63,017 bases of DNA, filler included, from Reclinomonas americana ATCC 50394 (GCA_048213135.1; 22 parts of 22 records of this genome joined end to end with filler, not necessarily neighbours in it); one strand, 5' to 3'. Counted from the whole stretch's first letter, positions 11,987 through 50,316 are shown. The notes: generated from the sequence alone by a model not told the origin. Numbers and translations are program-made.

Positions 11987-12083
11987 CCGCGTACGTGGCA
12001 GCTAGGCCGTGCAGCCGCACACCCACGGGGATGAGCCACGGGTCGAACCAGCGGTGGCGCTCGGGGATAGGCTTGATCTTCAT
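11987..12083 (-). CDS. N-terminus of hypothetical protein (MKIKPIPERHRWFDPWLIPVG...), 3'-truncated
   Basis: ATG at 12083 with an open frame to the contig end, downstream of the recombinase. Confidence 0.35.
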
Positions 12084-12234
12084 GTCAGCTAGCGAGTTCG
12101 CGGAACGATAAACCGATGCAGACCCGGGCGGGGACAGGCAGTCGAAAGCTCGACTCTGAACGATGCCCGGCGCGCCGGTTTATTTCCTAGGGTGAGGGGT
12201 AATTGGAAAGAGCCGAGGAGCTGCACATCTTCTC

Positions 12235-12921
12235 CTAGTGTGGGTGGTAATCGGCGAGCCGCTCCAGCACGCGGGACACTTGCACAGGCGACCAAGCTCC
12301 GCCCCGAGAGGTCGGGATGCCCTTTTCGTTCAACGCGCGGGCAAGCGCGCCCAAGGAAGAAACCCCGGCCGCGGCTAGCTCCCGCAACATCGGTTCGAGA
12401 TCAGCCGCTCTGGCCTGGGCTCTGGCGCTCTGGAAGGCCCGTCCTGCGTCCTGGGCGTTGCGTGACGGGGTAACTCCACGATGGCCGCCTAACACCGCTC
12501 CTCGCGCCTTTGCGGCGGCCAGCGCGGCCTTGGTGCGGGCAGAGATCATCTTACGCTCGGCCTGCGCCACGACCGCCATGATTCCGACCACCATCTCGTT
12601 CGCCTCAGGCATGTCGACCGCTGTGAAGCCGACGTCCGACTTCTGGAGGCCGAGGAGGAAATGCGCGTCGCGCGACAGGCGGTCGAGCTTGGCGATCAAC
12701 AGCCGAGCACCATGCAGCCGACATAGTCGCATAGCCTCGGCGAGCTTTGGGCGATCTGAATTGCTGCCGCTCTCGACCTCGATGACCTCGGCCACGAGTT
12801 CCCAGGCGCCGCCGTTCAGGAACGCTCTAACCGCCTCTTGCTGAGCCTCCAGACCCAACCCGGAGCGCCCCTGCTTCTGGGTCGATACCCGGTAGTAGGC
12901 GACGAACTTGCCCTCTGCCAT
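12235..12921 (-). CDS. Serine recombinase/resolvase (PinE-like) with C-terminal recombinase-type HTH
   Basis: 'YYRVSTQKQ' catalytic Ser, 'EVESG', 'KLDRLSR', 'ISARTKAAL', C-terminal 'LARALNEKGIPTSRGGAWSPVQVSRVL'. Confidence 0.93.
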   Translation of the reverse strand: MAEGKFVAYYRVSTQKQGRSGLGLEAQQEAVRAFLNGGAWELVAEVIEVESGSNSDRPKLAEAMRLCRLHGARLLIAKLDRLSRDAHFLLGLQKSDVGFTAVDMPEANEMVVGIMAVVAQAERKMISARTKAALAAAKARGAVLGGHRGVTPSRNAQDAGRAFQSARAQARAADLEPMLRELAAAGVSSLGALARALNEKGIPTSRGGAWSPVQVSRVLERLADYHPH

Positions 12922-12924
12922 GTC

Positions 12925-12960
12925 TTACATCCGTCTCGATGAGCGTTGAGACAGATGTAA
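12925..12960. promoter_or_regulatory. Inverted repeat immediately upstream of the recombinase start (candidate res/att or autoregulatory site)
   Basis: TTACATCCGTCTC-N10-GAGACAGATGTAA with a 12/13 arm match. Confidence 0.6.
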
Positions 12961-12994
12961 AGACCGACCTGAGCTGGCGTCAATGCGGAGTGCA

Positions 12995-13444
12995 TCAGGC
13001 GGCCGGGAGCTTGTTGAGCTTCCCCAGGTTGCAGGGCCAGCAGATGATCCGCGCGTTCTCATAGGAGTTGTCCCCGCCGTGCTGCGGCGAGACATGATGA
13101 TCGAAGTGCCACGGCGTGTTCGGATGCTGCGCATGTGGTTTTATTTCCGACCACGCAGTGCTGCAGCGCGGGCACCGCTCCGGATGTTCGGCCACCAGCC
13201 GGCGTTTGACCTCGACGGAGAACCGCGGCGTCCGTGCGCTGTACTCCTTGCTCCGCTTGCGCTGGCAGACCATGCAGCGGTTGTGAGAGTTCCAAGGCGT
13301 CTCGGTGGCGCAGGCCGGGCAGTACTTGCGGGGGCGCTCGGCAAGCGAGATCCGCCGCCCGCCTTGGCCTTCTGATGGGGGCACGGGGGGAAGGTCGATT
13401 GTCCCACCTTGTGGTAGCGACTCAGATTTTTCCGCCGAAACCAA
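12995..13444 (-). CDS. HNH endonuclease with extra N-terminal zinc finger (start uncertain)
   Basis: CPAC..CMVC, CPRC, 'DHHVSPQHGGDNSYENARIICWPCNLGK'. Confidence 0.85.
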   Translation of the reverse strand: MVSAEKSESLPQGGTIDLPPVPPSEGQGGRRISLAERPRKYCPACATETPWNSHNRCMVCQRKRSKEYSARTPRFSVEVKRRLVAEHPERCPRCSTAWSEIKPHAQHPNTPWHFDHHVSPQHGGDNSYENARIICWPCNLGKLNKLPAA

Positions 13445-13516
13445 GCGTCGATGAGGCGCTCTATCGGCCTGGGCTGTAAGTTGCAGATTCCGACGCGACC
13501 GGCCGGGTAATCCAAT

Positions 13517-13565
13517 AATTAACCGGCCACTGTTCCGAGAATTAACCGGTCGGGATTCCGAGAAT
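13517..13565. repeat. 23-bp-period direct repeat running into the contig end
   Basis: AATTAACCGG at 13517 and 13540, TTCCGAGAAT at 13533 and 13556. Confidence 0.7.
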
Positions 13566-24964: not shown

Positions 24965-26966
24965 CTCGTCGCGCCGTGACGGCCAGTACAAGTCCGAGTC
25001 GTTTTGCAGCAACTCCGGAAATCTGCTCACGATACGGGCGGCGTGAGAAGTGACAACAAGGCAACCTCGGAAATAGATCGACGACTCACCTGTCCACCAG
25101 CGCCTGCTCATCGTCGGTCACTCGCAAGCGCCAATGTCTCTTGCCGGGCACCAGTTCGGCCACCTCCGTGAACAAGAAGCTGTGGAATGCATGAGTCGCT
25201 GCGCGGTCTCGCCGCTCTCTGTCTTCAAAGTCACGTAACTGGATGATTTCGCGATCGACATTCATGAGCTCCGTCGGCAGATTCCTCTTCTCCACGAATT
25301 CGTGATTGACAAACTCGAGCAGAATGCGATCACGGATCTCCACCATGTACGGCAGCTCCGGGAAGACAAACTCACTGTGCCGTCGTGTGTGAGTGATGAG
25401 CATCCCCTGCGAAGCGCTTTTCTGTGTCGACGCCGTACCTTCGATACACCCATGCTCCGCGCACCATGCAGGCCACGGCACGCAGTTCACGCACAACATC
25501 CACAGCCGCATGCTCCTCTGTTATGCACAGAGCCTCCACACGAGAGAACTTGACGATGCGAGCTTCGTGTCGTGAAAGAAACATGAGCAATGTCCCACAT
25601 CCACCGCACTTACAACGCGCAACACACACACCTTCCTCCAACAACAATCGGATGCGCTCCCGCAACGTCCGGATCTTCGGCAAACCAGTGGCCGAGAACA
25701 GCGATGGTCTGCTCACCACCATGGTCAATCAGTCACCCTTTCCCCCTCCAATCACGCCAGACAGGCATCGTACCGAGGCATCGTGAATGTGGAGGCCACA
25801 TCGGCAATCGGTCGCAGCTTGAGACCACCCTTGGCCGCCAGCTCGGCATTGATGTTGTGATTGAGTTGCGCCTGGCTGTTGACTCGTGCCGAGTGATCCG
25901 CGGCACCTGCTCGTGAGATGGAATGTAAGCCACAGACAACAACAACCCGCGCCAAGGAAAATGACACACTTCTGACTCCCTGGCCCCCCGCCGTACGATC
26001 CTCCATGGGACACAGTGCGTCGAGGAACGCTTGTGGCGACATGTCGAATGCGGGTCCCTGCAGTGTGCGATGCAATGAGACCAGACATTAGTATCTTCCC
26101 CCGCACAAGTCGCGTACCGAGCGCATGTGTCGCGGCTCAGCGGCAAGTCGTTGCCGCATCTCCTGCGATCTCCGATCCTGCAGCACGGTCGTGAGGACCA
26201 CCTCACGCAGCCGACACGCACACACACATGCATGCATGCATGCATACACACACACACCGAAGGCGGTCGGTAGGCATACTCGATAAACTTCTCCTCGCGT
26301 TCTCGCTCCACCATGTACGGATACGATCGCATGTAGGCCTCCAGTTGTCGATGACTCTCGCGTCGCTTCGGTTCCGGCGACGCACCGGCCATTGCCGCCG
26401 ACGAGCCTCCAGAAGCACTACTCACACCGCACAGAGATCAGAGCATGGCACAGGCCAGGACAAGAGAGACAGAAGAGAGGCACTCACCCATCGACCTTCA
26501 TCGCGGCGCGTTCCATGCTCGACGCCGCCGCAGCAGCAGCCGAGGCCGACGCCGAGGTGCTGGTGGTGGTCGCCGCCGCCGTGAACGCCGACTGCGGATC
26601 GTCTTCGGAACCCGGCGTGAACTGCAGCGTCGTGTGCAGCGGCGTCAGGTGCACCGCACCTGTGCACACGCACACATGAGACAGCACGTCTCTCTGCTTC
26701 CTGCGGCTCTCGCTCTCACTGACCATTGTNNNNNNNNNNNNNNNNNNNNNNNNNNNNNNNNNNNNNNNNNNNNTTAATTAATTAANNNNNNNNNNNNNNN
26801 NNNNNNNNNNNNNNNNNNNNNNNNNNNNNCCGCGACGATGGCGGCGACCGCGACCACTGCCCTCACTGTCGCTATCACTAAAGGCATCCTCGTCGGCAAG
26901 AAGCTGGTCGAGGATGCGAGCGGCAGAGGGCACTGCGGCCTCTGGTGCAGGCGGGTCCACCTCCAT
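24965..26966 (-). CDS. POLR3E: RNA polymerase III subunit RPC5 (multi-exon, spans a gap, 3'-truncated; first exon assigned by position)
   Basis: 'GAVHLTPLHTTLQF', 'RSYPYMVEREREEKF', 'LRERIRLLL..ARIVKFS', 'AVACMVRGAWVYRS', 'RDRILLEF' match remembered RPC5/Sin motifs. Confidence 0.75.
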
Positions 26967-27066
26967 TCACACGCACACACACACTATCGATCGCCAAACG
27001 AGACGGAGACAACTCGCCGCGTTGCATGACACCGGGACTTCTACATTGTCGCACCTCCGTCGTCGC

Positions 27067-29119
27067 TTACAACACGTAGCGCGTGAGGTCGGTCTTCAGC
27101 AGCATATCGCCGATCCGCCTTCGCACAAATGCCTTGTCCACAATCACCGTCTGCAAGGTCAATAGAACACAAGTTCAGCACCTGGGTTTTCTCCCGATTC
27201 TACCTGTACCCGTCACTGACCGTGTTCTTGGCCATGTCGGGTGCGTCGAAGCTGACTTCCTCCATGACGCGTTCCATGATGGTGTGCAGACGGCGGGCGC
27301 CAATGTTCTCCACGGTGGTGTTGACTTCGGCGGCGAGGCGGGCGATTTCGTCGACGGCGTCGTCGGTGAACTTGAGAATGACGCCCTCGGTGCGCAACAG
27401 CTCCGTCTGCTGCTGGATAACGTTGTTTTCGGGTTCGCGCAGGATGCGTGCGAGGTCGTGCCGGGTGAGTGCTTTGAGTTCCACGCGAATCGGTAGGCGA
27501 CCCTGTGTGCATGTTGTTGTCGTGAGTTTCCTCCAGTCGTGAGTGCGCGTCGCGTTTCACGACAATCACGCAACTTGCTGCTCCCCGGAAAGCACACACA
27601 CACATGAACAAAGAAACAGGTTAGTAACACAACCGCTAATGACGACGACAGCAACAGTGCAGCGGCTCACCAGCTCCGGCAACAGATCCGACGGCTTGCA
27701 ATGTGTGAACGCTCCCGAGGCGATAAAGAGAATGTGCTCGGTCGACACGTTGCCGTACTTGGTGGAGATGGAGCATCCTTCGATGAGTGGCAGCAGATCC
27801 CGCTGAACGCCCTCGGCACTTGCGTCGGCTCCGTCGCGCGAACCCACCGGCGTGCAAATCTTGTCAATCTCGTCAATTACCACAATGCCCGACTGCTCCA
27901 CCAGCTCAATGGCCGTACGCGCCACCGTTTCCTCATTCACCAGCGCCTCCGCCTCCTTCTCTTCGAGGATGGGGCGCGCCTTCCGCACGGTCATCATGAC
28001 CCGCCGTGTGGCCGAGCTGCCCATCATTTGCCGAAAGTTGGAGACCAGGTCGTCCAGTCTCTGTCGCACCACACTGACGACGTTACCATCTCGTCGCGGC
28101 TACCACGATGACACTTGCCGTCACGCAACTCCCAGTCCCGAGTCACCGCCGGCGCCACCGCCACCGTGACTGGAGCCGCCGAGTACGCCGTCCATGAGAT
28201 CGCGACCGCCACCGCCCGAATGGTGCACCGGCACATCCACCGCAATGATTCGATCCTCCAGCTGCCCATCGCGTAGCATGTTGCGGAAGGTGTCGCGTGT
28301 GGCCGGTCGACTGTCGGGTCCCGTGAGAGCCTCCAGAATGCGCTCCTCCACCGCCAACACCACATCCTCGGAGAGACCCTCACGCATCTGCCCCTCCCAT
28401 TCAAGATGAGGCTTCACTGGAGAAGCGTCGCCCTCTCCGCTTTCTCACCTTGGTGCGCGTCCTCACAATCGCACTCTCCACCATGTCGCGAATGATCGAA
28501 TCCACATCGCGTCCGTGGAAGCCGACCTCGGTGAACTGCGTGGCCTCCACCTTGTGGAAGGGCGACTCGCACAGCTTGGCCACTCGTCGGGCGATCTCGG
28601 TCTTGCCAACACCTGTCGGTCCAATCATGAGAATGTTACGCGGCACATACTCGTCGCGCACGCCGCGCGGCAGCTGCGTTCTTCGCCATCGATTGCCTGC
28701 ATCCACTCTCAGTCGCACGCATGCACACAGTGTGCAGCAGGGGGGGGGGCTGGAGGACGCAACGCAGAGCAATGGCGACAGCGCGCTTTGCATCCGTCTG
28801 CCCGACAATGTGACGATCCAACTCGGCCACCACCTTGCCTGGCTTCAGGTGACCCAGTGCTGCGTATGTGTGTGTGCGAGCGATGAGTGTGCGAGTCACA
28901 CACACACGCATACTCTGCGTGCACGCAACACTTTCTAATCTCGCGAATCGTGACCGACTCCTCTGCATCGTCGAGTGTGGTCGATGATGCTGTCGTGCTG
29001 CCTGCTTCCACAGTCGACTTGACTGTGCTTTCAGTGGTGCCAGTGGTCAGCAGCGCTCGTCCGCCTGTCACCAGCAGACGGCCTGGTATGCGACACAGTC
29101 CGCGCTGCAAGAGCAACAT
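27067..29119 (-). CDS. hslU: HslU/ClpY AAA+ ATPase subunit, intron-containing, with mitochondrial-type presequence
   Basis: '[19 protein letters not shown]', '[18 protein letters not shown]', 'DEIDKI', '[13 protein letters not shown]', 'ENIGARRL', C-terminus 'DLTRYVL*'. Short GT-AG introns. Arg/Leu-rich N-terminus. Confidence 0.93.
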
Positions 29120-29136
29120 GTTCGTTCGTTGTGACT

Positions 29137-30414
29137 TCATTGAGACGGACGCGAGGACACTTCATCGTCGTCGTCGTCTTCGTCGTCGTCCACGTCGGCC
29201 ATCTCAATGGCCAGCTTCGGGTAGCCGGACCAGAGAAGTAGAGGTGAAGGCGACGCCGCCGTTGCGTGCTCACGCAGCGACTCGACAAACATCATGACTC
29301 GCATCGGCACATTGGTGGCTTGCAGGAAGTGCTGCACGTCGGCCAGCTTGTCGCTTTCCACCGACAACGAGAAGAACAGTCGTTTCCGGTGCTCCGCGGC
29401 CTGCGTGCACGATTCAGCGTGTGATCGAGGCGGTGGAAGTGGAGGCAGCATAGAAACGCAACAGGTTCGCCGTTGAGTTGCAGCAACTGGCATTCGAGGT
29501 ACGCCAGCTCCACGACCACCGACTTGAACCCGGCCGCGAATGCCTGCACACGGCGCTTCTGCACGCCCACCAAGTGTTGTGGCACCCTGCGCCCGGAGAA
29601 CAATGAGGAACAATCCCGACTGCGGGCGGAGTGAGTGACAGAGAGAAAGAAACGCAACGCTGGTGGCTGTGGCGACTCGGCTCGCCGCGGTGCGTCATCC
29701 TCGCCAGCCGCCGACGAGCCATGCTCCGTCAGAAACACTGTCGAGTCGCTTCCGGCCGCCGCAGTTGTCGCGACCGCGTCAACCACGTGCCTTCCTCGTG
29801 TGCTGTTGTTGCTCACATATGAGCGCGCAACAGCAGCCGCATGGCCGCACACCCGCACTCACCGCTGCAAGTACTCCTCCACCGGTCGGCTGTACTTGCT
29901 CTTCATCTTGCTCTGCACCAGGCGATCGAGCACCTCCAGCACATCTTCCACCCTGATCGGGATGCCTGCGTTGCCGTTGTCAGTGACTGAATGACTGACT
30001 GAGTGTGCCGCCCCACACTAGCACACCATCCGCAGGCGAACTGTACTCCACCGACCACTTCTTCCACCGATCCACCATCTGCGGTGGCGATGTGGTCTGT
30101 CGCCGCTCCTCGTCGGCCGTCTTGCATCGTCGGACCTTGACCTCCAAATCGCCTTCGCGCAGCTTGACCCCGATCCTGCGCTCCACACGCATGAGCGAGC
30201 AAGCACACCACCACCACCATCATACCTCGCTGGCGAGCACAGACCGCGTATCACAAGGCACATAAATGTCGGTGCGCTGCGGCGGCAATGCTGCGACGCG
30301 CTGTGTGGACATGCTGTCGAGGGCTGTCAGTGAGCGCAGGGTGGGCCCGTGCTCGGCGATGGCCGCGGGTGAGAGCGCCGTGCACTCGACAAACACACGC
30401 CACTCGAAGCCCAT
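29137..30414 (-). CDS. CYTH-like (triphosphate tunnel) domain protein, multi-exon
   Basis: 'FEWRVF', 'RTDIYV', 'GVKLREGDLEVKVR', 'WKKW', 'VQKRR', 'SVES', 'SGYP'. Intron 29401-29462 restores the frame. Confidence 0.55.
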
Positions 30415-31189
30415 TCTTGCCGGATCTTATCTCGTCGTGTTGGTTTCTGGCAATGAATGCAATGTCCTCCTCCGAGGCCGTCGTCGTGTCGTCGTCGTCA
30501 TATAGACTGCGAAAGCGAAAGCGCTCTTTCTGCGGATAGATGTACGTCGTTGTACATCTAATCACCGACGCGAGCAAGAGTGGAAGAGATCAGCGATGGA
30601 AGCGACGTCGCCAGAATTCAACGCTTGGTGTCCCAAGGCCCACAACCGCAGCGACAGTCGAGTGAGAGAAGGCAACTCGGTCGCAGTGCACGAGTATGAG
30701 CGAAGTTTAGTGTGCGTGTGCCCTGTGTGCTTTCTCGCGAAAAGTGACAGTGCTTACACTCGTGTGTGAACCGTCGACGCACGGTGCCTTGCATGCGTGC
30801 GTGACAGTGGACTGATTGTCGTGAGCACACGCGTATGCATCGGAGTCTTGTGTTGCAACGCTCGGTAGTGGTCAGGTAGCGAGAATTCTACCTGCGACTT
30901 GCGAAGTCGTCACCCTTCTTCGGTCGGTGGATCGTGTTCCTTGTTCTCAAGCACCCAGATGAAGCGAGAGTGGTAACTGAGAGCGCTATGTTGGATTTGT
31001 TAAAGAAGACGGGGCATAGCGCACTGTCGCCCTTCCTCATCTTCTTGGTTTGGACAGTCGTTGTTCGGGGTGCGTTTTTCTCTTCATGTATTGTTGCACA
31101 CTGCAGATATTCTTCTGTGTGCTCGCTCGTGTCTGTGCGTCTTCCTATCTACAACATCACAGAGCTCGAAGCAAATGTGTCTCCCACAG

Positions 31190-32749
31190 CAGCAAATCAG
31201 CCGATCGTCGTGCGAGTGGCCTCGGGCGCCGGCGAACTGCTGCCGGTATACTTCTGAGGAAACTGCTGGCTGACCTCATCCTGTCGGCGGTGGAGCTCTA
31301 CAAGTCCGTGCTCGCCAACCTCGACAGCAAGCTCCGCGACTGCATCCGTCTCTGCCTCGGTCTCGGCAACGACTCCGGCACCCCCTTCCTCTGCACTCCG
31401 CTGTCGAAAGGTGGTCTCGGCCTGTACTCCAACTCGGCGGTGAAGCTGTTGACACCCCGCCGACCGCTGACTCGCCGTGTGGCGGAGCATGCATGCTCCA
31501 CTGCTCGGTGAAGGCGGCCGGTGGTCGTGTTTACGACTTCTCGCCGTTGCCGACTGCTGGTTTGGTGGCCAAGTACCGGCGCAGACGAACGAGGTCACAG
31601 ACGTCAATCGCCAGCAGCTGCCAGTTGCCACGCCACAGCGGTATTTCTCTGTGTGTTTGTCTCCTGTTGCTCCTCCGGCTGGTGCTGCTGCTGTTGCTCT
31701 TGGTGCAGGTACTCGGTTCCAAGTGGCCACTGATCCGAATGCTCCTCGCCGCGCTGTTCGCTCCAATCTGATGGGTGTTGCTCTCGGGCACGCTCTGAAG
31801 TTGGGTACAAGTGTGGAGGTGCATCCGGCGGCTGCTGCTGCTGGTCAGCCTCCACTGGCTGGCTGACGGTGGTGTTGTGTTTCCCTTTGCCTCTCGCTTT
31901 TTGCCTGCGATTATCACACTTCATACTCCAAGCACCACATTGTGAGCTGGAAGGCCTTGCGGAAGTGTGGTGCCTTTGTCGACTCTCTGCAGAAGGCTGC
32001 TGCTGGAACCCATGACGTGGTAGCTCAGGGCAACGGCATCACCGAGAAGGAGCAGCGCTTCCTGTGCAAGATGCGGATCAACTCCGTCATGCTCAACAAC
32101 AAGGCGGTGGTGTTCAGCGGCAACCCTGGTGGCCCTGCCTCGCTGTGCTCACTCTGTGGCAAGGAGTCGGAGTCGCTTGCACACTTGCTCAACGGCTGTG
32201 AAAAGCTGAAGGGCTTGTGGACGACGCGTCACGACAACGTGCTTGGCGTCCTTCAAGCCGCTCCAGTGCGGCGCCCCAAGGTGGACGGTGTGGCGTGCCA
32301 GCTGTTGCCTGCGGCGGTGGACATTGCGAACCACACAAACTTGGCCAGGCTCAAGCCGGACCTCGCCCAGCTGGTTCATACCAGAGAGGGGACTGGAGAG
32401 ATCTGCTCGGTCCAGGTGGTGGAGTTGACGTGCCCCTTCGCCAACGAAGACTCGGTCAAGTCTGCTGTCAACGGCAAGAAGGCCAAGTACGAGTCGTCGG
32501 TCAAGGCCATCAAGCTATCATGCCAAGGTCGAGCTGGTGATGCTCCCTGTGACCTCGATTGGCACGGCTCCGGCCTTGGTGTTGACTGGCCTCCGTCGTC
32601 TCGGCGTGCGCAACGTCCGCCAGTGCATCTCTCGCCTTTGCACGACGAGCTTACGTACAAGTTACTCGATGTTTGTCCAACGATGCAAGGGAGTGGGTGG
32701 TGCACAGGTTCAGGCTGGAGTGCAAGCATTCCCTGCTGGTGTGGTGTGA
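31190..32749 (+). mobile_element. 5'-truncated, frameshifted R2/NeSL/R4-like non-LTR retrotransposon (RT thumb, CCHC knuckle, restriction-like endonuclease)
   Basis: 'GGLGL' thumb motif, 'CSLCGKESESLAHLLNGC', 'RHDNV', 'KPDL', 'ELTCP', 'KKAKY'. Confidence 0.88.
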
Positions 32750-40496: not shown

Positions 40497-43400
40497 TTAT
40501 TCGCCTGCGGGATGTAAAACGATCGGCCGCGGAAGAGCATCCGCGGCGACTTCATGCTCATCATTGCGCCGGTGCGGCTGGCCTGAGAAACGCGCATAGA
40601 GTGCCGGAAGCACGACGAGCGTCAGCAGGGTCGCACTGATAAGCCCGCCGATGACCACCGTGGCGAGCGGCCTTTGGACCTCGGCCCCCGTTCCAGTGGC
40701 GAGCGCCATCGGAACGAAGCCCAAGGATGCAACGAGCGCAGTCATGGCAACCGGGCGCAGTCGCACCATCGCCCCTTCCAGAATGGCCTCACGCTTCGGC
40801 ATACCTTCGTCCATGAGCTGCTTGATGAACGTCAGCATGACCAGGCCGTTCAAGACCGCGACGCCCGACAGCGCGATGAAGCCGACGGCTGCTGGAACAG
40901 AAAAGGGCATGCCGCGCAGCCACAGGGCCGCGATTCCACCTGTCAGCGCCAAGGGCACGGCGCTGAACACCAGAATAGCGTCTCGCGCCGATCCAAGCGC
41001 TTGGTAAAGCAGCAGGAAGATCAAGAAAAAGCAGCCCGGTACGACGATCATGAGGCGCTGGCGCGCGGAGGCGAGGTTTTCAAATTGCCCGCCCCAGCTC
41101 ACGTAATATCCTGCCGGCAGCTGGACCTGTTCACCGACCTTGCTTTGAACTTCTGCGACGAGCGAACCGATGTCCCGATCCCGCACGTTCGCGGTCACGA
41201 CGATGCGCCGCTTGCCGTTCTCGCGAGAGATCTGATTGGGCCCTTCCGCCACCGCAAAGGACGCGACCTGCTTCAGTGGGACCGACGACCCACGTCCGGT
41301 CGCCGTTGGCGGAAGCGGGACCGGTATATTCTGCAACGCCTCCAGATTTTCACGCCGCTTGTCGTTGAGACGAACCACGATCGGAAAGCGTCGATCTCCC
41401 TCGAAGACATAGCCAGCCTCGCGTCCGCCGATGGCGGCGCCGATGACTTCCTGGACGGTGAAAAGGCTGAGGCCAAGACGCGCGATCTCTGTCTTGTCGA
41501 CCTTGATTTCAAGGAATGGCAGGCCGGTGGTCTGTTCGACCTTGACGTCCTCAGCCCCTTGCGTGTCGCGCAGAACCGTCGCGATCTGGTTTGCGGCTTG
41601 GAGCATCGGCCCAAATTCCTCGCCGAACACCTTCACCGCGAGGTCGCCACGCGTTCCCGCCAGGAGTTCGTTGAAGCGGAGCTGGATCGGCTGCGAGAAC
41701 TCGTAGTTGTTTCCCGAAAGCTGCGAGAGCGCCTTTTCGATCTGCTCTTGCAGTTCGGCTTTGGGCTGCGCGGGATCAGGCCATTCCGCCTGGGGCTTCA
41801 AGATGATGAAGGTATCGGATGAATTCGGTGGCATCGGGTCGGCCGCCACCTCCGCCGTGCCCGTTTTGGAAAAGACATAGGCAACCTGAGNNNNNNNNNN
41901 NNNNNNNNNNNNNNNNNNNNNNNNNNNNNNNNNNTTAATTAATTAANNNNNNNNNNNNNNNNNNNNNNNNNNNNNNNNNNNNNNNNNNNNTGGCCCTTTC
42001 GACCTTGATCTGCATCGCTTGCGACTGAGACAGCGAAGTGGACGGGATCCGCAATGCGTTCATCGCGATGTTTTTCTCGTCCAGGGTCGGAATGAATTCC
42101 TGGCCGAGCCCTGTGAACACGATGCCTGACAGTACAAATAGCCCAACCGATCCGAGGATGAATGCCATCGGCCGCCGCACCGCGCCTGCCAGCATCGGCC
42201 GGTACCCCGTCTTCATGGCACGAATGAAGATGTTGTCCTTCTCCTGCACCCGGCCGGTGATCGCGATTGCGATGCAGGCTGGAACGAAAGTCAGTGAGAG
42301 GATGAAGGCTGAAACGAGTGCGATGATGACGGTCAGCGCCATCGGTTCGAACATCTTGCCCTCGACGCCGGTGAAGGTAAGAAGCGGGACGTAGACGAGA
42401 ATGATGATGGCTTGCCCAAAAAGCGACGGTTTGATCATCTCCTCGGCCGACTCGATGACCGTGCTGAGGCGCTCGCCTTTCGAGAGCTTGCGTCCGAGTT
42501 CATGTTGACGTTCAGCAAGGTGTCGAAGGCTGTTTTCGGCGATGATAACGGCGCCATCGACGATCAGCCCGAAATCGAGCGCGCCGAGGCTCATCAGGTT
42601 GGCGCTGATGCGGCCTTGGACCATGCCGGTCATCGTCATGAGCATGGCGATGGGGATCACCATGGCGGTGATGATGGCAGCCCGGATGTTGCCGAGGAGC
42701 AAGAACAGCACGACGACGACCAGCGCCGCCCCTTCGGCAAGATTCTTCGCGACCGTCTTGACCGTGGCATCGACGAGCAACGTGCGATTGAGCACCGTCT
42801 TAGCTTCGACGCCAGGAGGCAGCGAACGAACGATCTCCTTCATCTTGGTATCGACCGCCGCCGCAACGGTGCGGCTGTTTCCGCCGATCAGCATCAGCGC
42901 GGTGCCGACCACTACCTCTTGGCCGTTCTCGGATGCGGACCCGGTTCGCAAGTCGCGCCCGATCCGCACTTCAGCAATATCCTTGACCCTGATAGGGACC
43001 CCGCCGCGGGTCGCTACAACGACGTTGCCGATCTCGTCCATGCTTTCGAGGCGGCCCGCGGAACGAACGACGTAGCCTTCCCCATTGTCCTCGAGGTAGC
43101 CGGCACCCCGGTTGGCGTTGTTGGTGTCGAGCGCCGCAGCAATGTCGCTGAAGGACAGGTTGAGACCAACCAGCTTCGCTGGGTCGGGCTGGACGTGATA
43201 TTGTTTCTCGTAGCCGCCGATGCCATCGACGCCGGCGACGCCCAGGACAGTCTTGACCTGGGGACGAATGATCCAATCCTGAACCGTGCGCAGATAGGCT
43301 GCACGTTCAAATTCTGTGGTGAGACTTTGACCCTCAGGGGTCAGGAAGGTTCCATCTTTTTGCCAGCCAGGGCGACCATCGTGGACCGGGGCTCCGTCCG

Positions 43401-46656: not shown

Positions 46657-46857
46657 NNNNNNNNNNNNNNNNNNNNNNNNNNNNNNNNNNNNNNNNNNNN
46701 TTAATTAATTAANNNNNNNNNNNNNNNNNNNNNNNNNNNNNNNNNNNNNNNNNNNNTTCTGAAAGCAGAAACCCCGAGAACGCTCGGCGGAGGGGCAGGC
46801 ACCGACACCACCGGCATCTGCCCCCTCAAACCCCGTCGATGGACGGCCAAGGAAGCG

Positions 46858-48882
46858 TCAGGAGCCGCTGCGACCCTCGCCATGATCCTTGATTTGACGG
46901 CTGACGTCGTCGATCGCCGCTTGGGCCTCAGCACTCAGATTGGCCAGCATATCGGTCGGCATCAGCTCGAGCTGCTCGGTGGCGGTCCTATCGGCATTCG
47001 CCTGGATCAGGGCGGAAATGCTGACGTTCCGGGCGCCAGGACGTATCGGCAGTGCCAGCAACCGGGAAGGGGAGGGTGAGGGCTCCTTCGTCCGCTCTCC
47101 ACTGTTCGCGACCTTCGGGAGCGGAGCCGCTTCTGTTGGGGGCCCGGGTCTGAGCTCGACGATTTCGTCGTCATCGCTCTCATCGAGGCGCTCCGGAACT
47201 GGAGCCGCCTCCTGTTCAGGCGGTGGCGGCGTCTCCTCGATGATCGCGCCCGGTCCATTGAAGTCCGGCGCGGAGGCGGCAGCAGGTGCGAGGCTGGATC
47301 GAACGGGAGGCAGCACCTCGGGCTCGACGAGACCAATCGGCGGGTGGGAGACCGCCGGGACGGTTTCCCGGGCAAGCTTGGCTTTCACCTCCGCCAGCGA
47401 GATCAGCGGCTGCGTCTCCCAGGCGGGGAGGGGCGGCACTTTCAGCCGCCGATCACGGAATTTCCGATAGATCGCCTTGAACGGCGCGTCGCGGAAGTAG
47501 GTCAGCTTGCCAATCACGAAACCCGGAGCGTTCGGTACCAGCACGATCGCGCGGTCGGACGGCATCTGGCGCAATTCCTCGGCGGTGCGCAGCGCACGTT
47601 CCTGATAACTGACGCTCTTGTCACGGCTGGCGAAGATGCCTCTGCCGGCGCGGATGATCGGGGTCCGAACCTCGATCGTGGTCGAGCCGAGCATCTTGGA
47701 GACATATTCCGAGGTCTCCAGGTCGTTCATGCGGATGAAGAGCTTGACCTGGCAGGCGGAGACGGTGGTCTGCCGCGTCGCGCGGCCATAGAGCTCGTCG
47801 AGCTGCGCCAGGTCCTGAAGGATCAGAACCATGCGGAAGCCATAGCCGGCATTGATCGTGAGCTTGGAGACCAACGACACCATCTNNNNNNNNNNNNNNN
47901 NNNNNNNNNNNNNNNNNNNNNNNNNNNNNTTAATTAATTAANNNNNNNNNNNNNNNNNNNNNNNNNNNNNNNNNNNNNNNNNNNNGTCGCGGATATTGGT
48001 CAGCACGCGCAGGAATTCCACGCCCGTCGCGGTCAGGTTCGTGACCGCGCGAAGATGGCGTTGACCCTCATAGCGCGGGCTGGCGATGACATAGCCGATC
48101 AGGGCGGTGAGCAACTGGCGGCCGGTCCGAGCCCAGATCTCCGAGGCTCCGGTTCCCTCGGGTACAATGAAGGACGCCACCACGGCCGTGTCGGTCGCCA
48201 TGTGCGCGTCGCGACGGATGAAGTCGAGGGGATTGAAGCGATGCGTTTCCCGCTCGCCGGGCGAGAACATGAAGACCTTGTCGCCGAGCGCCTGCCGGTG
48301 GGCACCGATGGCCTCGAACAGTTCGCGTTTCGGATCGAACCAGACCGAAGATCCACGCCAGCTATAGCCGTTCGGAATCACAAAGCTGACGCCCTTGCCC
48401 GATCGGGTCGGGCCGACAACGAGCACATGGGAGGGATCGTCCGAGGTGATCGTCGCGCCGCTCAGCCGGCCGAGGATCAGGCCCTGCCTGGCAAGAAGTC
48501 CCTTACGGCCGGCATCGATCAGAGTGCCGAAACGCGCATTGCCGTGATGGGTGGGCTTGCGCATCACAACCGCGAACACGGCGATGCCTGCCGCAAGCGC
48601 GATCGTCACGCCAACCGCGATCAGCCCGCGCAGGATCGTCTCGGAGCGTGTAGCGGGGTAGGCGAGCCGTTCCGAAAAATGCTCCCAGGCGACGAGCAGG
48701 GCACCCGGATCACGGCGGCTGTTCTGAAACTGGAGGAGCGCCCAACGTGATTTACCCTCGCCGGCCAAGGCGGGATTCCAGCGCGCTGTGACGACGAGCT
48801 CGTAGGCGAGACTGGTCAAGAGGAAGGCGGCGATGAGCGCAAGTAGCGCAATCAGCAGCCTAAACGCGTAAACCCGTGACAT
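46858..48882 (-). CDS. virD4: Type IV coupling protein VirD4/TraG (split by a gap)
   Basis: 'HGNARF', 'GPTRSGKGVSFVIPN', 'DPKRE', 'FNPLD', 'ILQDLAQL..LYG'. Confidence 0.93.
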
Positions 48883-49906
48883 GACCGGGCCCCTCTCTGG
48901 CCGCCTGCCAATCGGCCATGCGGTTGAAAAAGATCGCGGAGGTGCCCCGCCAGCCGCCGCGGCGGGTCTGCTGGATGACGATCGGCAGGACCGAGCGGAT
49001 GTAGTCGACGATCTCCGATTTCCGCAGGCCGAGGCCGGCCTGCATGACCATCAGGGCGAGCTGCTCGAAGGCGCCATGCGGACTATCGGCATGGATGGTG
49101 GTGATCGATCCGGGGTGACCGGTATTGACGGCGCGCAGGAAGGAATAGGCTTCGGCCCCGCGGATCTCGCCGAGGAAGATGCGATCCGGCCTCAGCCGCA
49201 TGGCGGCCTGCAGCAGGCTCTCGATCGTCACGCGCGCCTGGCCCTGGTCGCCCTTCGAGGCGACGAGCGGGAGATAGTTCGGCTGGACCGGTTTCACCTC
49301 GCGCGTGTCCTCGATGGTGATGATCCGCTCCTCCGGCGGCACCTCGTGCAGGATCGCGTTCAGGAAGGTCGTCTTGCCGGAGGACGTTCCGCCGGAGAGC
49401 AGGATCGAATAGCGCTCGGCCACGGCGAGGCGGATGAAGCTCTCGATCTCGCCGGCGTCGAGATGTTCGCAAAGACAAATATCGGCCGCGCTCAGCGCGT
49501 TCGGATCGCCGATATCGATTGCCTCGAACGAGCCGCGCTTGCGGTACTCCTGGAGCCGCATGTCCTTCACGACCTGCTTGCGGATCGCGAAGGCGCCGCC
49601 ATTGGTCGTCGCCGGCGGCAGCACGCCCTGGAAGCGCTCGCCATCCGGCAGGGCCGCAGAAAGCAGGGGATGCTCCTCGTTGACGGATTGACCGCTGAAG
49701 GCGGCGACGCGCTCCATCAGATGGCGTAGCGCGGCGCGGCTGAGCTCCGGCACGGCATGGCGCTCCATTTCGGTGCCGCCGGCAACTTCGACCCAGACCT
49801 CTCCAGGCCGATTGGCGCAGATCTCGACGACCGTGTCGTCATCGAGCCAGCGCCTGATCGGCTCCAGCGCGCGGCTCAGAAAGACGGTCCGGGTCGTGTC
49901 GCTCAT
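48860..49906 (-). CDS. virB11: T4SS ATPase VirB11
   Basis: 'GGTSSGKTT', 'IEDTRE', 'RLRPDRIFLGEIRGAEA', 'NTGHPGSITTIHA'. Confidence 0.96.
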   Translation of the reverse strand: MSDTTRTVFLSRALEPIRRWLDDDTVVEICANRPGEVWVEVAGGTEMERHAVPELSRAALRHLMERVAAFSGQSVNEEHPLLSAALPDGERFQGVLPPATTNGGAFAIRKQVVKDMRLQEYRKRGSFEAIDIGDPNALSAADICLCEHLDAGEIESFIRLAVAERYSILLSGGTSSGKTTFLNAILHEVPPEERIITIEDTREVKPVQPNYLPLVASKGDQGQARVTIESLLQAAMRLRPDRIFLGEIRGAEAYSFLRAVNTGHPGSITTIHADSPHGAFEQLALMVMQAGLGLRKSEIVDYIRSVLPIVIQQTRRGGWRGTSAIFFNRMADWQAAREGPGHVTGLRV

Positions 49907-49964
49907 CGTCCTCGGCCGCGATTCGCATAAGGTACGTTATGGAACATATTCCTACAATCCAGAT

Positions 49965-50316
49965 TTATTTCACAGAACGTGCACGGGCCCGCTCATGTCG
50001 GATCTCCTGTAGGGCCTCCTTCACCGGGTCCGGATAGAAGGCCGAGAAGTCGAGATCGCGCCGGACGAAGACCATGATGCGCGAGCCCTGGTCGACATGG
50101 ATCGTCGGCGGAATGTGGATGGAGTCGCGCAGCGCTTCCTCGGCGATCCGGTTCAGCGTCATCGAAACCTGCTGCGCGCCGATCTGCCGCGCATAGAGTG
50201 CGTTCTGGTTCGGCTGGCCCTGCACGACCACCGGCTGGCCGGTGGTCGGATCGATGGTGCTGTACTGGTTCTGGCCGGACTGGTTGTCCTGGCCGAGATT
50301 GGCGATGAACTGCGCC
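49965..50316 (-). CDS. virB10: T4SS protein VirB10, C-terminus (5'-truncated)
   Basis: 'IPPTIHVDQGSRIMVFVRRDLDFS'. Confidence 0.9.

Follow-up and report, generated by a model that had tools for sequence, protein, structure and literature searches.

Tight same-strand packing of an orphan gene, a mitochondrial-type HslU gene and a presumed RPC5 gene in Reclinomonas americana

Three genes on the minus strand of Reclinomonas americana ATCC 50394 (GCA_048213135.1), namely an orphan gene, a mitochondrial-type HslU gene and presumably RPC5, are packed with same-strand spacers of 0-17 nt and 100 nt, as an earlier note had said in claiming little room between them. The tight packing of the genes is real and implies that neighbouring genes are transcribed together or that their transcripts overlap; it is a hint in that direction and not proof of the operon that the note had proposed. 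Gene models, reading frames and distances were established directly on the DNA, and from these we infer what is said below of transcripts. The reading of separate genes with overlapping transcripts, in which HslU would be made from its own mRNA, is held at about even probability, and a true polycistron, all forms taken together, is unlikely.

The window, by which we mean the whole stretch of 63,017 nt that was analysed, is made up of 22 contigs and 21 linkers of 100 nt each (44 N, TTAATTAATTAA, 44 N), and Bosea-like bacterial contigs are among the 22 that were joined. The contig of the trio, which also holds a retroelement relic, ends at 26830; that coordinate had been given as the start of the operon-like span and is a contig end only. 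It is followed by an artificial, strandless linker of 100 nt (26730..26829).

The HslU gene (27067..29140, minus strand) was modelled with seven exons (29140 or 29119-28930, 28859-28764, 28696-28449, 28387-28130, 28060-27671, 27502-27221 and 27150-27067), 522 (or 515) codons, a TAA at 27069-27067 and six GT-AG introns. Its identity, as claimed earlier, was upheld by collinear pieces of TIGR00390, by Walker motifs and by homologues found with tblastn. The TIGR00390 pieces lay at profile positions 2-29, 28-111, 195-328 and 321-416 of 441, with 29.6, 131.3, 161.6 and 126.2 bits, giving a rough sum of 448.7 against a cut-off of 362.45; for two of the six exon-bearing HslU pieces, one covering the I-domain and the other the last exon, this profile gave no match, and the last exon was aligned by five of seven eukaryotic HslU homologues in tblastn, to the final residue at the TAA. 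Pfam AAA, AAA_2 and ClpB_D2-small matched HslU pieces as well, and the 522-residue protein carries a Walker A motif (GPTGVGKT, residue 128) and a Walker B motif (DEIDK, residue 334). Identity to eukaryotic HslU was 58-69% over one exon, and the best of the matches listed were from red algae, Plasmodiophora, cryptophytes and haptophytes, not Euglenozoa. The first 30 residues contain 4 K+R and 1 D+E when read from ATG 29119, and 6 K+R and 0 D+E when read from ATG 29140, and 70-77 residues precede the conserved core as an extension (median about 55, maximum about 184, in 78 aligned homologues). Protist mitochondrial HslU, which is of the bacterial type, is alike in the collinear equivalog match, the Walker motifs and the N-terminal extension, and the protein itself is ordinary. 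A model that keeps intron 1 and starts at about 28967 was rejected, the intron scoring -0.19 and the upstream stretch -0.69 per codon; this intron has a GTTGCG donor and a typical length.

The orphan gene (29137..30414, minus strand) was modelled with five exons (30414-30226, 30180-30027, 29965-29863, 29586-29463 and 29400-29137), four GT-AG introns of 45, 61, 276 and 62 nt, and a TGA at 29139-29137, giving at least 277 codons, or at least 834 nt when spliced, with no internal stop. Introns had been claimed for all three genes, and in the first two 10 of 10 modelled introns are GT-AG and 45-276 nt long; splice phases are consistent in the orphan model and the donor GTTGCG is common to the orphan gene and HslU. 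As a donor consensus, GTTGCG did not appear in the titles and opening lines of abstracts that were searched. All five exons were coding-like in the assigned frame (+0.37 to +1.19 per codon) under a codon model trained on HslU exons 2-7 only, and for exons 1, 2, 4 and 5, the four compared in all frames, the two alternative frames were negative. The last exon scored +0.59 per codon, a value reached by 0 of 2000 shuffles, and its other frames -1.0 and -0.79. GC at the three codon positions was 0.66/0.42/0.79 for the whole orphan gene and 0.67/0.39/0.75 for its last exon (29400-29137), compared with 0.65/0.44/0.74 for HslU. An extra exon at 29802-29659 was considered and set aside, being in frame yet not coding-like (-0.09 per codon).

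Thus, of the upstream gene drawn earlier at 30414..29137, the stop, the frame and the coding-like exons stand, and the 5' end is uncertain, the start at ATG 30414 being doubtful, with a coding-like segment 5' of it. That segment (30431..30570, minus strand) is in another frame, lacks an ATG and scores +0.87 per codon, which none of 2000 shuffles reached; it is possibly a further part of the orphan gene. ATG 30414 is flanked by A at -3 and G at +4. One of only three TATA tetramers on the contig is at 30504-30501, about 90 nt 5' of this ATG, and since the stretch is possibly coding no inference was drawn from it.

The label CYTH-like, given earlier to the upstream gene, found no support in any test run (Pfam, custom HMM, hhalign, PDB, Atlas and homologue searches). 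The orphan's alternating charged strands are taken to resemble the CYTH fold. A Pfam scan of the five exon-bearing pieces gave no match to CYTH (PF01928) at E <=0.1; an HMM built from four bacterial CYTH domains scored -0.6 bits against the spliced 277-residue orphan, and hhalign of that HMM with the orphan model returned a probability of 0.07%. The left-out members of the HMM were recovered at E 1e-41 to 1e-50, and its sensitivity to distant eukaryotic members is low. Searches for relatives were likewise negative: none for the last exon among 5729 word-sharing candidates, none confirmed among 589 pattern matches in metagenome contigs, no homologue candidate for exon 2, no usable Atlas match for exons 5 and 1, and nothing below E 0.2 in PDB sequence searches with exons 5, 2 and 1. 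HMMER against 1.84 billion representatives returned three matches, which were taken as artefacts because all are internally repetitive proteins aligned in 5-8 stretches.

At the junction, the orphan TGA (29139-29137) shares bases with ATG 29140-29138, the first in-frame ATG of HslU. The ATGA at 29137..29140 (minus strand) was confirmed by direct reading with both frames verified, and the spacing of 17 nt from the orphan stop to a second in-frame ATG (29117..29119, minus strand), both reported before, was measured again with the same result; a presequence-like N-terminus follows this second ATG. Both ATGs are joined in the HslU frame to exon 2 by a 70-nt GT-AG intron (28929-28860), and the HslU frame is open only from 29161, past a stop at 29164-29162. 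With the stops of the three frames near the junction at 29164-29162, 29139-29137 and 29033-29031, the orphan ORF, whichever frame is read, stops no more than 25 nt short of ATG 29140 or runs past it, so that no one base call would decide whether the transcripts overlap. An exact 50-mer spanning the junction had no occurrence in metagenome contigs.

Downstream, the distance of 100 nt from the HslU stop to the third start (spacer 26967..27066, minus strand) was read as claimed, between TAA 27069-27067 and ATG 26966. The third ORF (26830..26966, minus strand) begins with this ATG after an in-frame TGA and is cut by the contig edge after 45 codons; its frame scored +0.45 per codon, a value attained in 11 of 2000 shuffles, and the 45 codons had no family match in Pfam. 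RPC5-like gene pieces lie on the neighbouring contig (25086..26729, minus strand) as three collinear PF04801 matches at profile positions 117-136 (E 0.08), 283-328 (E 1.8e-4) and 329-404 (E 0.034), with 12.6, 21.3 and 13.9 bits, each under the cut-off of 23.1. Of the third gene named earlier as RPC5, a coding-like ORF does lie 100 nt on, and the RPC5 similarity is confined to the neighbouring contig and below cut-off in each match. The two contigs are inferred to be adjacent, and the 45-codon ORF is presumed to be the RPC5 N-terminus.

Under the preferred reading, the trio would be three separate nuclear genes head to tail, the third probably RPC5. The HslU mRNA would have its 5' end within the orphan last exon or the 17-nt spacer, with translation starting most likely at ATG 29119, or else at 29140; the orphan mRNA would end within HslU exon 1 or intron 1, and the 100-nt spacer would accommodate both the 3' end of HslU and the third gene's leader. 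The ATGA overlap would then be a by-product of packing and not a coupling device. This reading is consistent with an HslU that has its own Met and a basic, acid-poor leader, and with three products that are functionally unrelated. Against it stand the contrast between two successive tiny spacers on one strand and the several hundred bases 5' of the trio, which had no family match, and the failure to find a recognisable promoter, start-site or poly(A) signal, neither AATAAA nor ATTAAA occurring on the contig's minus strand. TGTAA at 27071-27067, which overlaps the HslU stop, is no commoner than chance, and TCCGTCTC, which precedes the HslU ATG and the third ATG, is not enriched in the window (7 occurrences against 4.2 expected, equalled in 8 of 100 shuffles). 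A scan for bacterial promoters and terminators was set aside as not applicable to a eukaryotic host.

The sequence does not favour translational coupling. The orphan ORF measures at least 834 nt and contains 15 ATGs ahead of the HslU start, where composition predicts about 10; a scanning ribosome could not pass it to reach the HslU ATG, and leaky scanning is ruled out. The TURBS motif is UGGGA. TGGGA is absent from the 260 nt upstream (29400-29141), where other pairing with 18S rRNA is possible, and the fold of the junction (29250-29050) is ordinary (z = -0.52). A mature di- or tricistronic mRNA of the orphan, HslU and perhaps RPC5, in which termination-reinitiation, either at the AUGA or at the second AUG 17 nt past the stop, would yield HslU, is accordingly disfavoured by its long, AUG-rich first ORF and by the lack of a TURBS-like motif or unusual structure before the overlap, and we regard it as quite unlikely; it would also, we think, be a poor route to a housekeeping ATPase. 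According to the portion of PMC10275272 available, reinitiation after a long ORF is inefficient and depends on a structured element lying upstream and pairing with 18S rRNA; it is described there as essentially viral, cellular cases being still unclear. In its favour, the stop-restart distance (overlap or 17 nt) lies inside the roughly 20-nt range of viral, TURBS-type reinitiation (PMC10275272, in part), the next spacer on that strand is short as well, at 100 nt, and nuclear polycistrons are on record from green algae, some with stop/start overlap (PMC7896298; PMC11291117), and from fungi (PMC4503453), as far as the extracts of those articles go. The specific form in which one mRNA carries the ORF of at least 277 codons, HslU and perhaps RPC5, and HslU arises by AUGA reinitiation without a TURBS-like element, is very unlikely.

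It is similarly improbable that a polycistronic precursor is resolved by processing, for example by spliced-leader trans-splicing at an AG before ATG 29119. The common strand and very short spacers of the three genes would suit such a precursor, as would the AG at 29136-29135, which is 15 nt 5' of ATG 29119 and is preceded by a pyrimidine-rich stretch. The spacer of 0-17 nt, however, has no room for an orphan 3' UTR and poly(A) site, so that a single precursor molecule could not give both mRNAs; a spliced-leader search had been called for, and neither a spliced-leader RNA family nor any other RNA family was found across the window, and the HslU matches listed do not point to Euglenozoa. The acceptor score near ATG 29119 is uninformative, because the splice-site matrix, built from 10 introns, had no discriminating power (left-out true sites scored -2.0 to 11.8); a reading of weak cryptic splice sites was dropped for the same reason.

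There is also little probability that the orphan ORF is non-working, a decaying or unexpressed relic, and that the stretch serves only as HslU promoter and leader. The unsettled 5' end and the failure of the exons searched (1, 2 and 5) to find a homologue anywhere would fit a relic, against which stand five of five coding-like exons, consistent splice phases, a donor type in common with HslU and 277 codons open throughout. Least probable is a single fused gene, through an in-frame 56-nt intron (29160-29105, its GT and AG in phase with both frames and scoring inside the left-out range of true sites) or a single-base error of assembly within 29161-29140, of the kind suggested by frame switches elsewhere in the assembly (in AcrB beside an A4 run, and at the orphan 5' end beside a G3 run). 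Against a fusion, the N-terminal extensions of the 78 aligned HslU homologues reach no more than about 184 residues, comparison of the orphan protein with 120 HslU homologues found no resemblance (best E 0.23), the Met-led presequence-like segment would fall mid-protein, and the longest homopolymer in the 22 nt of 29161-29140 is 2.

The designation of the trio as a candidate undescribed system was too strong, since overlapping stop and start codons in nuclear bicistrons of Auxenochlorella have already been published (PMC11291117, in the portion available). The likeness to the green-algal loci (PMC7896298; PMC11291117) lies in this overlap, found in some Auxenochlorella loci, and in unrelated products. 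The differences are that, in the parts of these articles available, the algal ORF1 is short (median 291 nt in A. protothecoides) and translation is by leaky scanning, for which a weak ORF1 context is needed, whereas ORF1 of the trio is at least 834 nt long with 15 ATGs and a doubtful start at 30414; nor is HslU here closest to green-algal sequences among the matches listed. In viral and retrotransposon reinitiation at UAAUG or AUGA (caliciviruses, influenza B, SART1; PMC10275272, from extracts), a long ORF likewise ends in a stop that shares nucleotides with the next, out-of-frame AUG, but an 18S-pairing structured element is required. The trio, a cellular locus with introns, has neither the motif named above nor an unusual fold.

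A parallel to the preferred reading is offered by compact genomes. In the part of PMC4815078 available, close neighbours in the compact protist genome of Plasmodiophora brassicae have overlapping UTRs, and mRNAs spanning more than one gene are cited for microsporidia and nucleomorphs. As in the trio, intergenic space is lacking there, with UTRs, promoters and terminators inside neighbouring genes, as would apply here on the preferred reading; mRNAs may hold the sequence of more than one gene, yet each protein is made from its own mRNA (PMC4815078, same extracts). The contig of the trio differs in its introns of up to 276 nt and its retroelement relic. Should the transcripts merely overlap, as is likelier, the trio would be one more case of promoters and terminators within neighbouring genes, and would serve chiefly to warn those who predict genes in this assembly. 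Should the proteins be co-translated from one mRNA, reinitiation after a long ORF would have a cellular example, one that yields an essential organellar protein, and nuclear polycistrons would be extended past green algae and fungi.

The AcrB stretch with the frame switch had no match in two Bosea genomes. On seven other eukaryote-like contigs of the window, a crude codon scan found coding segments to be sparse; the genome may thus be non-compact overall, with the qualification that those contigs possibly come from other organisms, and if it is, the packing of the trio becomes more pointed.

The TGA stop codon (29139-29137, minus strand) of the gene upstream of HslU overlaps an ATG at 29140 that is in frame with HslU (ATGA, 29140-29137), a second in-frame ATG (29119) lies 17 nt after that stop, and the HslU stop is separated by 100 nt from the ATG of a third ORF at 26966, which is preceded by an in-frame TGA. 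These distances, along with the overlap, frames and introns, had been read correctly from the sequence in an earlier note, which took the three genes to be a polycistronic or translationally coupled unit. Upstream of ATG 29140, each of the three frames stays open until at most 25 nt before that codon, or past it (three-frame stops near the junction at 29164-29162, 29139-29137 and 29033-29031), and the close spacing is thus robust to single base errors. With a stop/start overlap (or 17 nt) followed by a 100-nt spacer, either neighbouring transcripts overlap or the genes share one transcript.

Identification of HslU was based on in-order matches to TIGR00390 (the HslU equivalog) in four of six minus-strand ORF pieces (profile positions 2-29, 28-111, 195-328 and 321-416 of 441), with bits summing roughly to ~449 over the pieces against a cut-off of 362. 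One 130-residue exon used as query matched thousands of HslU proteins, with identity of at most 69% among the best 120 of these, and the top named matches among those listed came from red algae, Plasmodiophora, cryptophytes, haptophytes and Holosporaceae; the source organism is hence not represented among the proteins searched. Alignment of seven homologues by tblastn placed the conserved core at ~28863 to 27070, and five of the seven aligned through their last residue, ending just ahead of TAA 27069-27067. In the resulting model, seven exons are separated by six GT-AG introns (61-168 nt), and the coding sequence runs to 522 codons from ATG 29140 or 515 from ATG 29119. Exon 1 (29140-28930, minus strand) is linked in frame to the core via a 70-nt intron whose donor is GTTGCG, and the open HslU frame begins no earlier than 29161. 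Exon 1 was tested with a codon model trained on exons 2-7 alone, the homology-supported exons, and scored per codon against shuffles: the ATG frame gave +0.34 per codon (4 of 2000 shuffles as high), and the other two frames gave -0.69 and -0.68. A start at ~28967 with intron 1 retained was disfavoured by the same model. The leader is basic and acid-poor, and at 70-77 residues it is of typical length (median ~55 and maximum ~184 in 78 aligned homologues).

The upstream gene was modelled as five exons on the minus strand (30414-30226, 30180-30027, 29965-29863, 29586-29463 and 29400-29137; 277 codons). GC content at codon positions 1/2/3 is 0.66/0.42/0.79, compared with 0.65/0.44/0.74 in HslU, and all five exons were positive in the assigned frame under the HslU-trained model (per-codon scores from +0.37 to +1.19). 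The last exon scored +0.59, a value that none of 2000 shuffles reached; for exons 1, 2, 4 and 5, those compared in all three frames, both other frames were negative. Thirty intron frames scored as a control averaged -0.41 and went no higher than 0.43. The unusual donor GTTGCG(T) begins 4 of the 10 modelled introns between 30225 and 27151 (one of four in the upstream gene, three of six in HslU), the hexamer occurs nine times on the gene strand of the contig versus twice on the opposite strand, and none of the papers listed by a literature search dealt with a GTTGCG-type donor consensus, judged by titles and the start of abstracts. Because of the HslU-like composition, the positive scores, the intron-frame control and the shared donors, the upstream ORF is a real-looking spliced gene, and its last exon runs onto the HslU start. 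Immediately 5' of ATG 30414, in a different frame and lacking any ATG, is a strongly coding-like segment at 30570-30431 (minus strand; +0.87 per codon, matched by 0 of 2000 shuffles). Its frame would merge with that of the gene if the G-run at 30412-30410 were wrong by one base in length, and the real start may hence be upstream of ATG 30414.

This gene is an orphan. Its exon pieces had no match in Pfam or NCBIfam, PDB sequence searches, two word-based searches, the Atlas and a metagenome scan gave nothing, and HMMER run in full against 1.84 billion representatives returned three matches only, all repeat-protein artefacts. The earlier designation "CYTH-like" found no support: an HMM of four bacterial CYTH domains scored the full spliced product at -0.6 bits and hhalign gave 0.07%, while left-out members were recovered at E 1e-41 or better; the test has little sensitivity. 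The protein has what we take to be a strand pattern that could fit the CYTH fold, a lead rather than a result.

The window is not one genome stretch but a chain of 22 contigs, with an identical 100-nt linker (44 N, TTAATTAATTAA, 44 N; stop codons in all six frames) at each of the 21 joins. A Pfam scan over its 134 long ORFs identified contigs with bacterial genes (periplasmic binding protein, permease, SDR, BamA, LpxD, FabZ, LpxA, P-type ATPase, AcrB, HlyD, type IV secretion proteins and resolvase), at least 12 in number, and eukaryote-like contigs (RICTOR domain, fn3 domains and HslU); the LpxA ORF has 93% identity to a Bosea sp. record. No RNA families or tRNAs were found in the window. That the context was a chain of bacterial and eukaryote-like contigs from a mixed assembly had gone unrecognised, and 26830, given as the boundary of the trio, is the end of its contig (26830-33117, 6,288 nt). 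AcrB picks up again beyond the linker at 41891-41990 (from profile position 586 to 591), and BamA, LpxD, FabZ and LpxA follow in succession over two linkers, showing that adjoining contigs can be scaffold neighbours. The 45 codons of the third ORF that fit before the contig ends are coding-like (+0.45 per codon, a level reached by 11 of 2000 shuffles) and matched no family. Its naming as RPC5 stands on weaker ground than claimed, since the three collinear Pfam matches to RPC5 are sub-threshold and lie on the next contig; the assignment would be reasonable provided the two contigs adjoin in the genome.

Judging from sequence, we favour separate genes with overlapping transcripts, to which we give about an even chance; such transcripts are on record for compact protist genomes (PMC4815078). 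A true polycistron, all forms together, seems unlikely, and the junction's sequence features speak to translation rather than transcription. Nuclear bicistronic loci with overlapping stop/start pairs have already been published (PMC11291117, in excerpt). In contrast to those green-algal loci, which have a short ORF1, the first ORF here is long, and this is what would make the locus interesting if a shared mRNA were true. Excerpts of PMC10275272 describe reinitiation after long ORFs as dependent on a structured element, located upstream, that base-pairs to 18S rRNA, with a stop-start distance within ~20 nt, and state that cellular cases remain unclear. Production of HslU by termination-reinitiation after the long upstream ORF would fit that spacing. 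Folding at the junction is ordinary (z = -0.52), and TGGGA, the motif of the upstream element, is absent from the 260 nt upstream; this is weak evidence against, because the organism's own 18S rRNA may pair with a different motif. A spliced-leader operon needs room for an upstream 3' UTR, which the first junction does not provide. Fusion of the orphan ORF and HslU by a cryptic 56-nt intron (29160-29105, minus strand) has a GT...AG pair in phase with both ORFs, and matrix splice-site scores neither support nor reject it, but it is unlikely because the Met-led presequence would fall mid-protein and none of 120 HslU homologues has a similar extension. Leaky scanning, the mechanism demonstrated for green-algal bicistrons, where the start context of ORF1 sets the product ratio (PMC7896298 and PMC11291117, in excerpt), is not credible here, since at least 834 nt lie before the HslU start and contain 15 ATGs (~10 expected).

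Inside one contig, at ~43550 (minus strand), the gene for the AcrB-type pump changes frame beside an A4 run (Pfam profile positions 1-96 in one frame, 96-586 in another), which reflects either an indel in the assembly or a pseudogene; given its similarity to the frame switch 5' of the orphan gene, the assembly may contain homopolymer errors. Genes for a type IV secretion coupling protein, a T2SSE-type ATPase and a resolvase are found on the bacterial contigs at 46757-50316 and 11987-13565, and suggest that the bacterial fraction includes a conjugative plasmid or an integrative element. Opposite the trio, on the plus strand at 31254-32623, are coding-like ORF pieces that match zf-RVT weakly (E 5e-4; 21.1 bits, under the cut-off) and show what we take to be a CCHC plus endonuclease-like pattern, probably a non-LTR retrotransposon relic.
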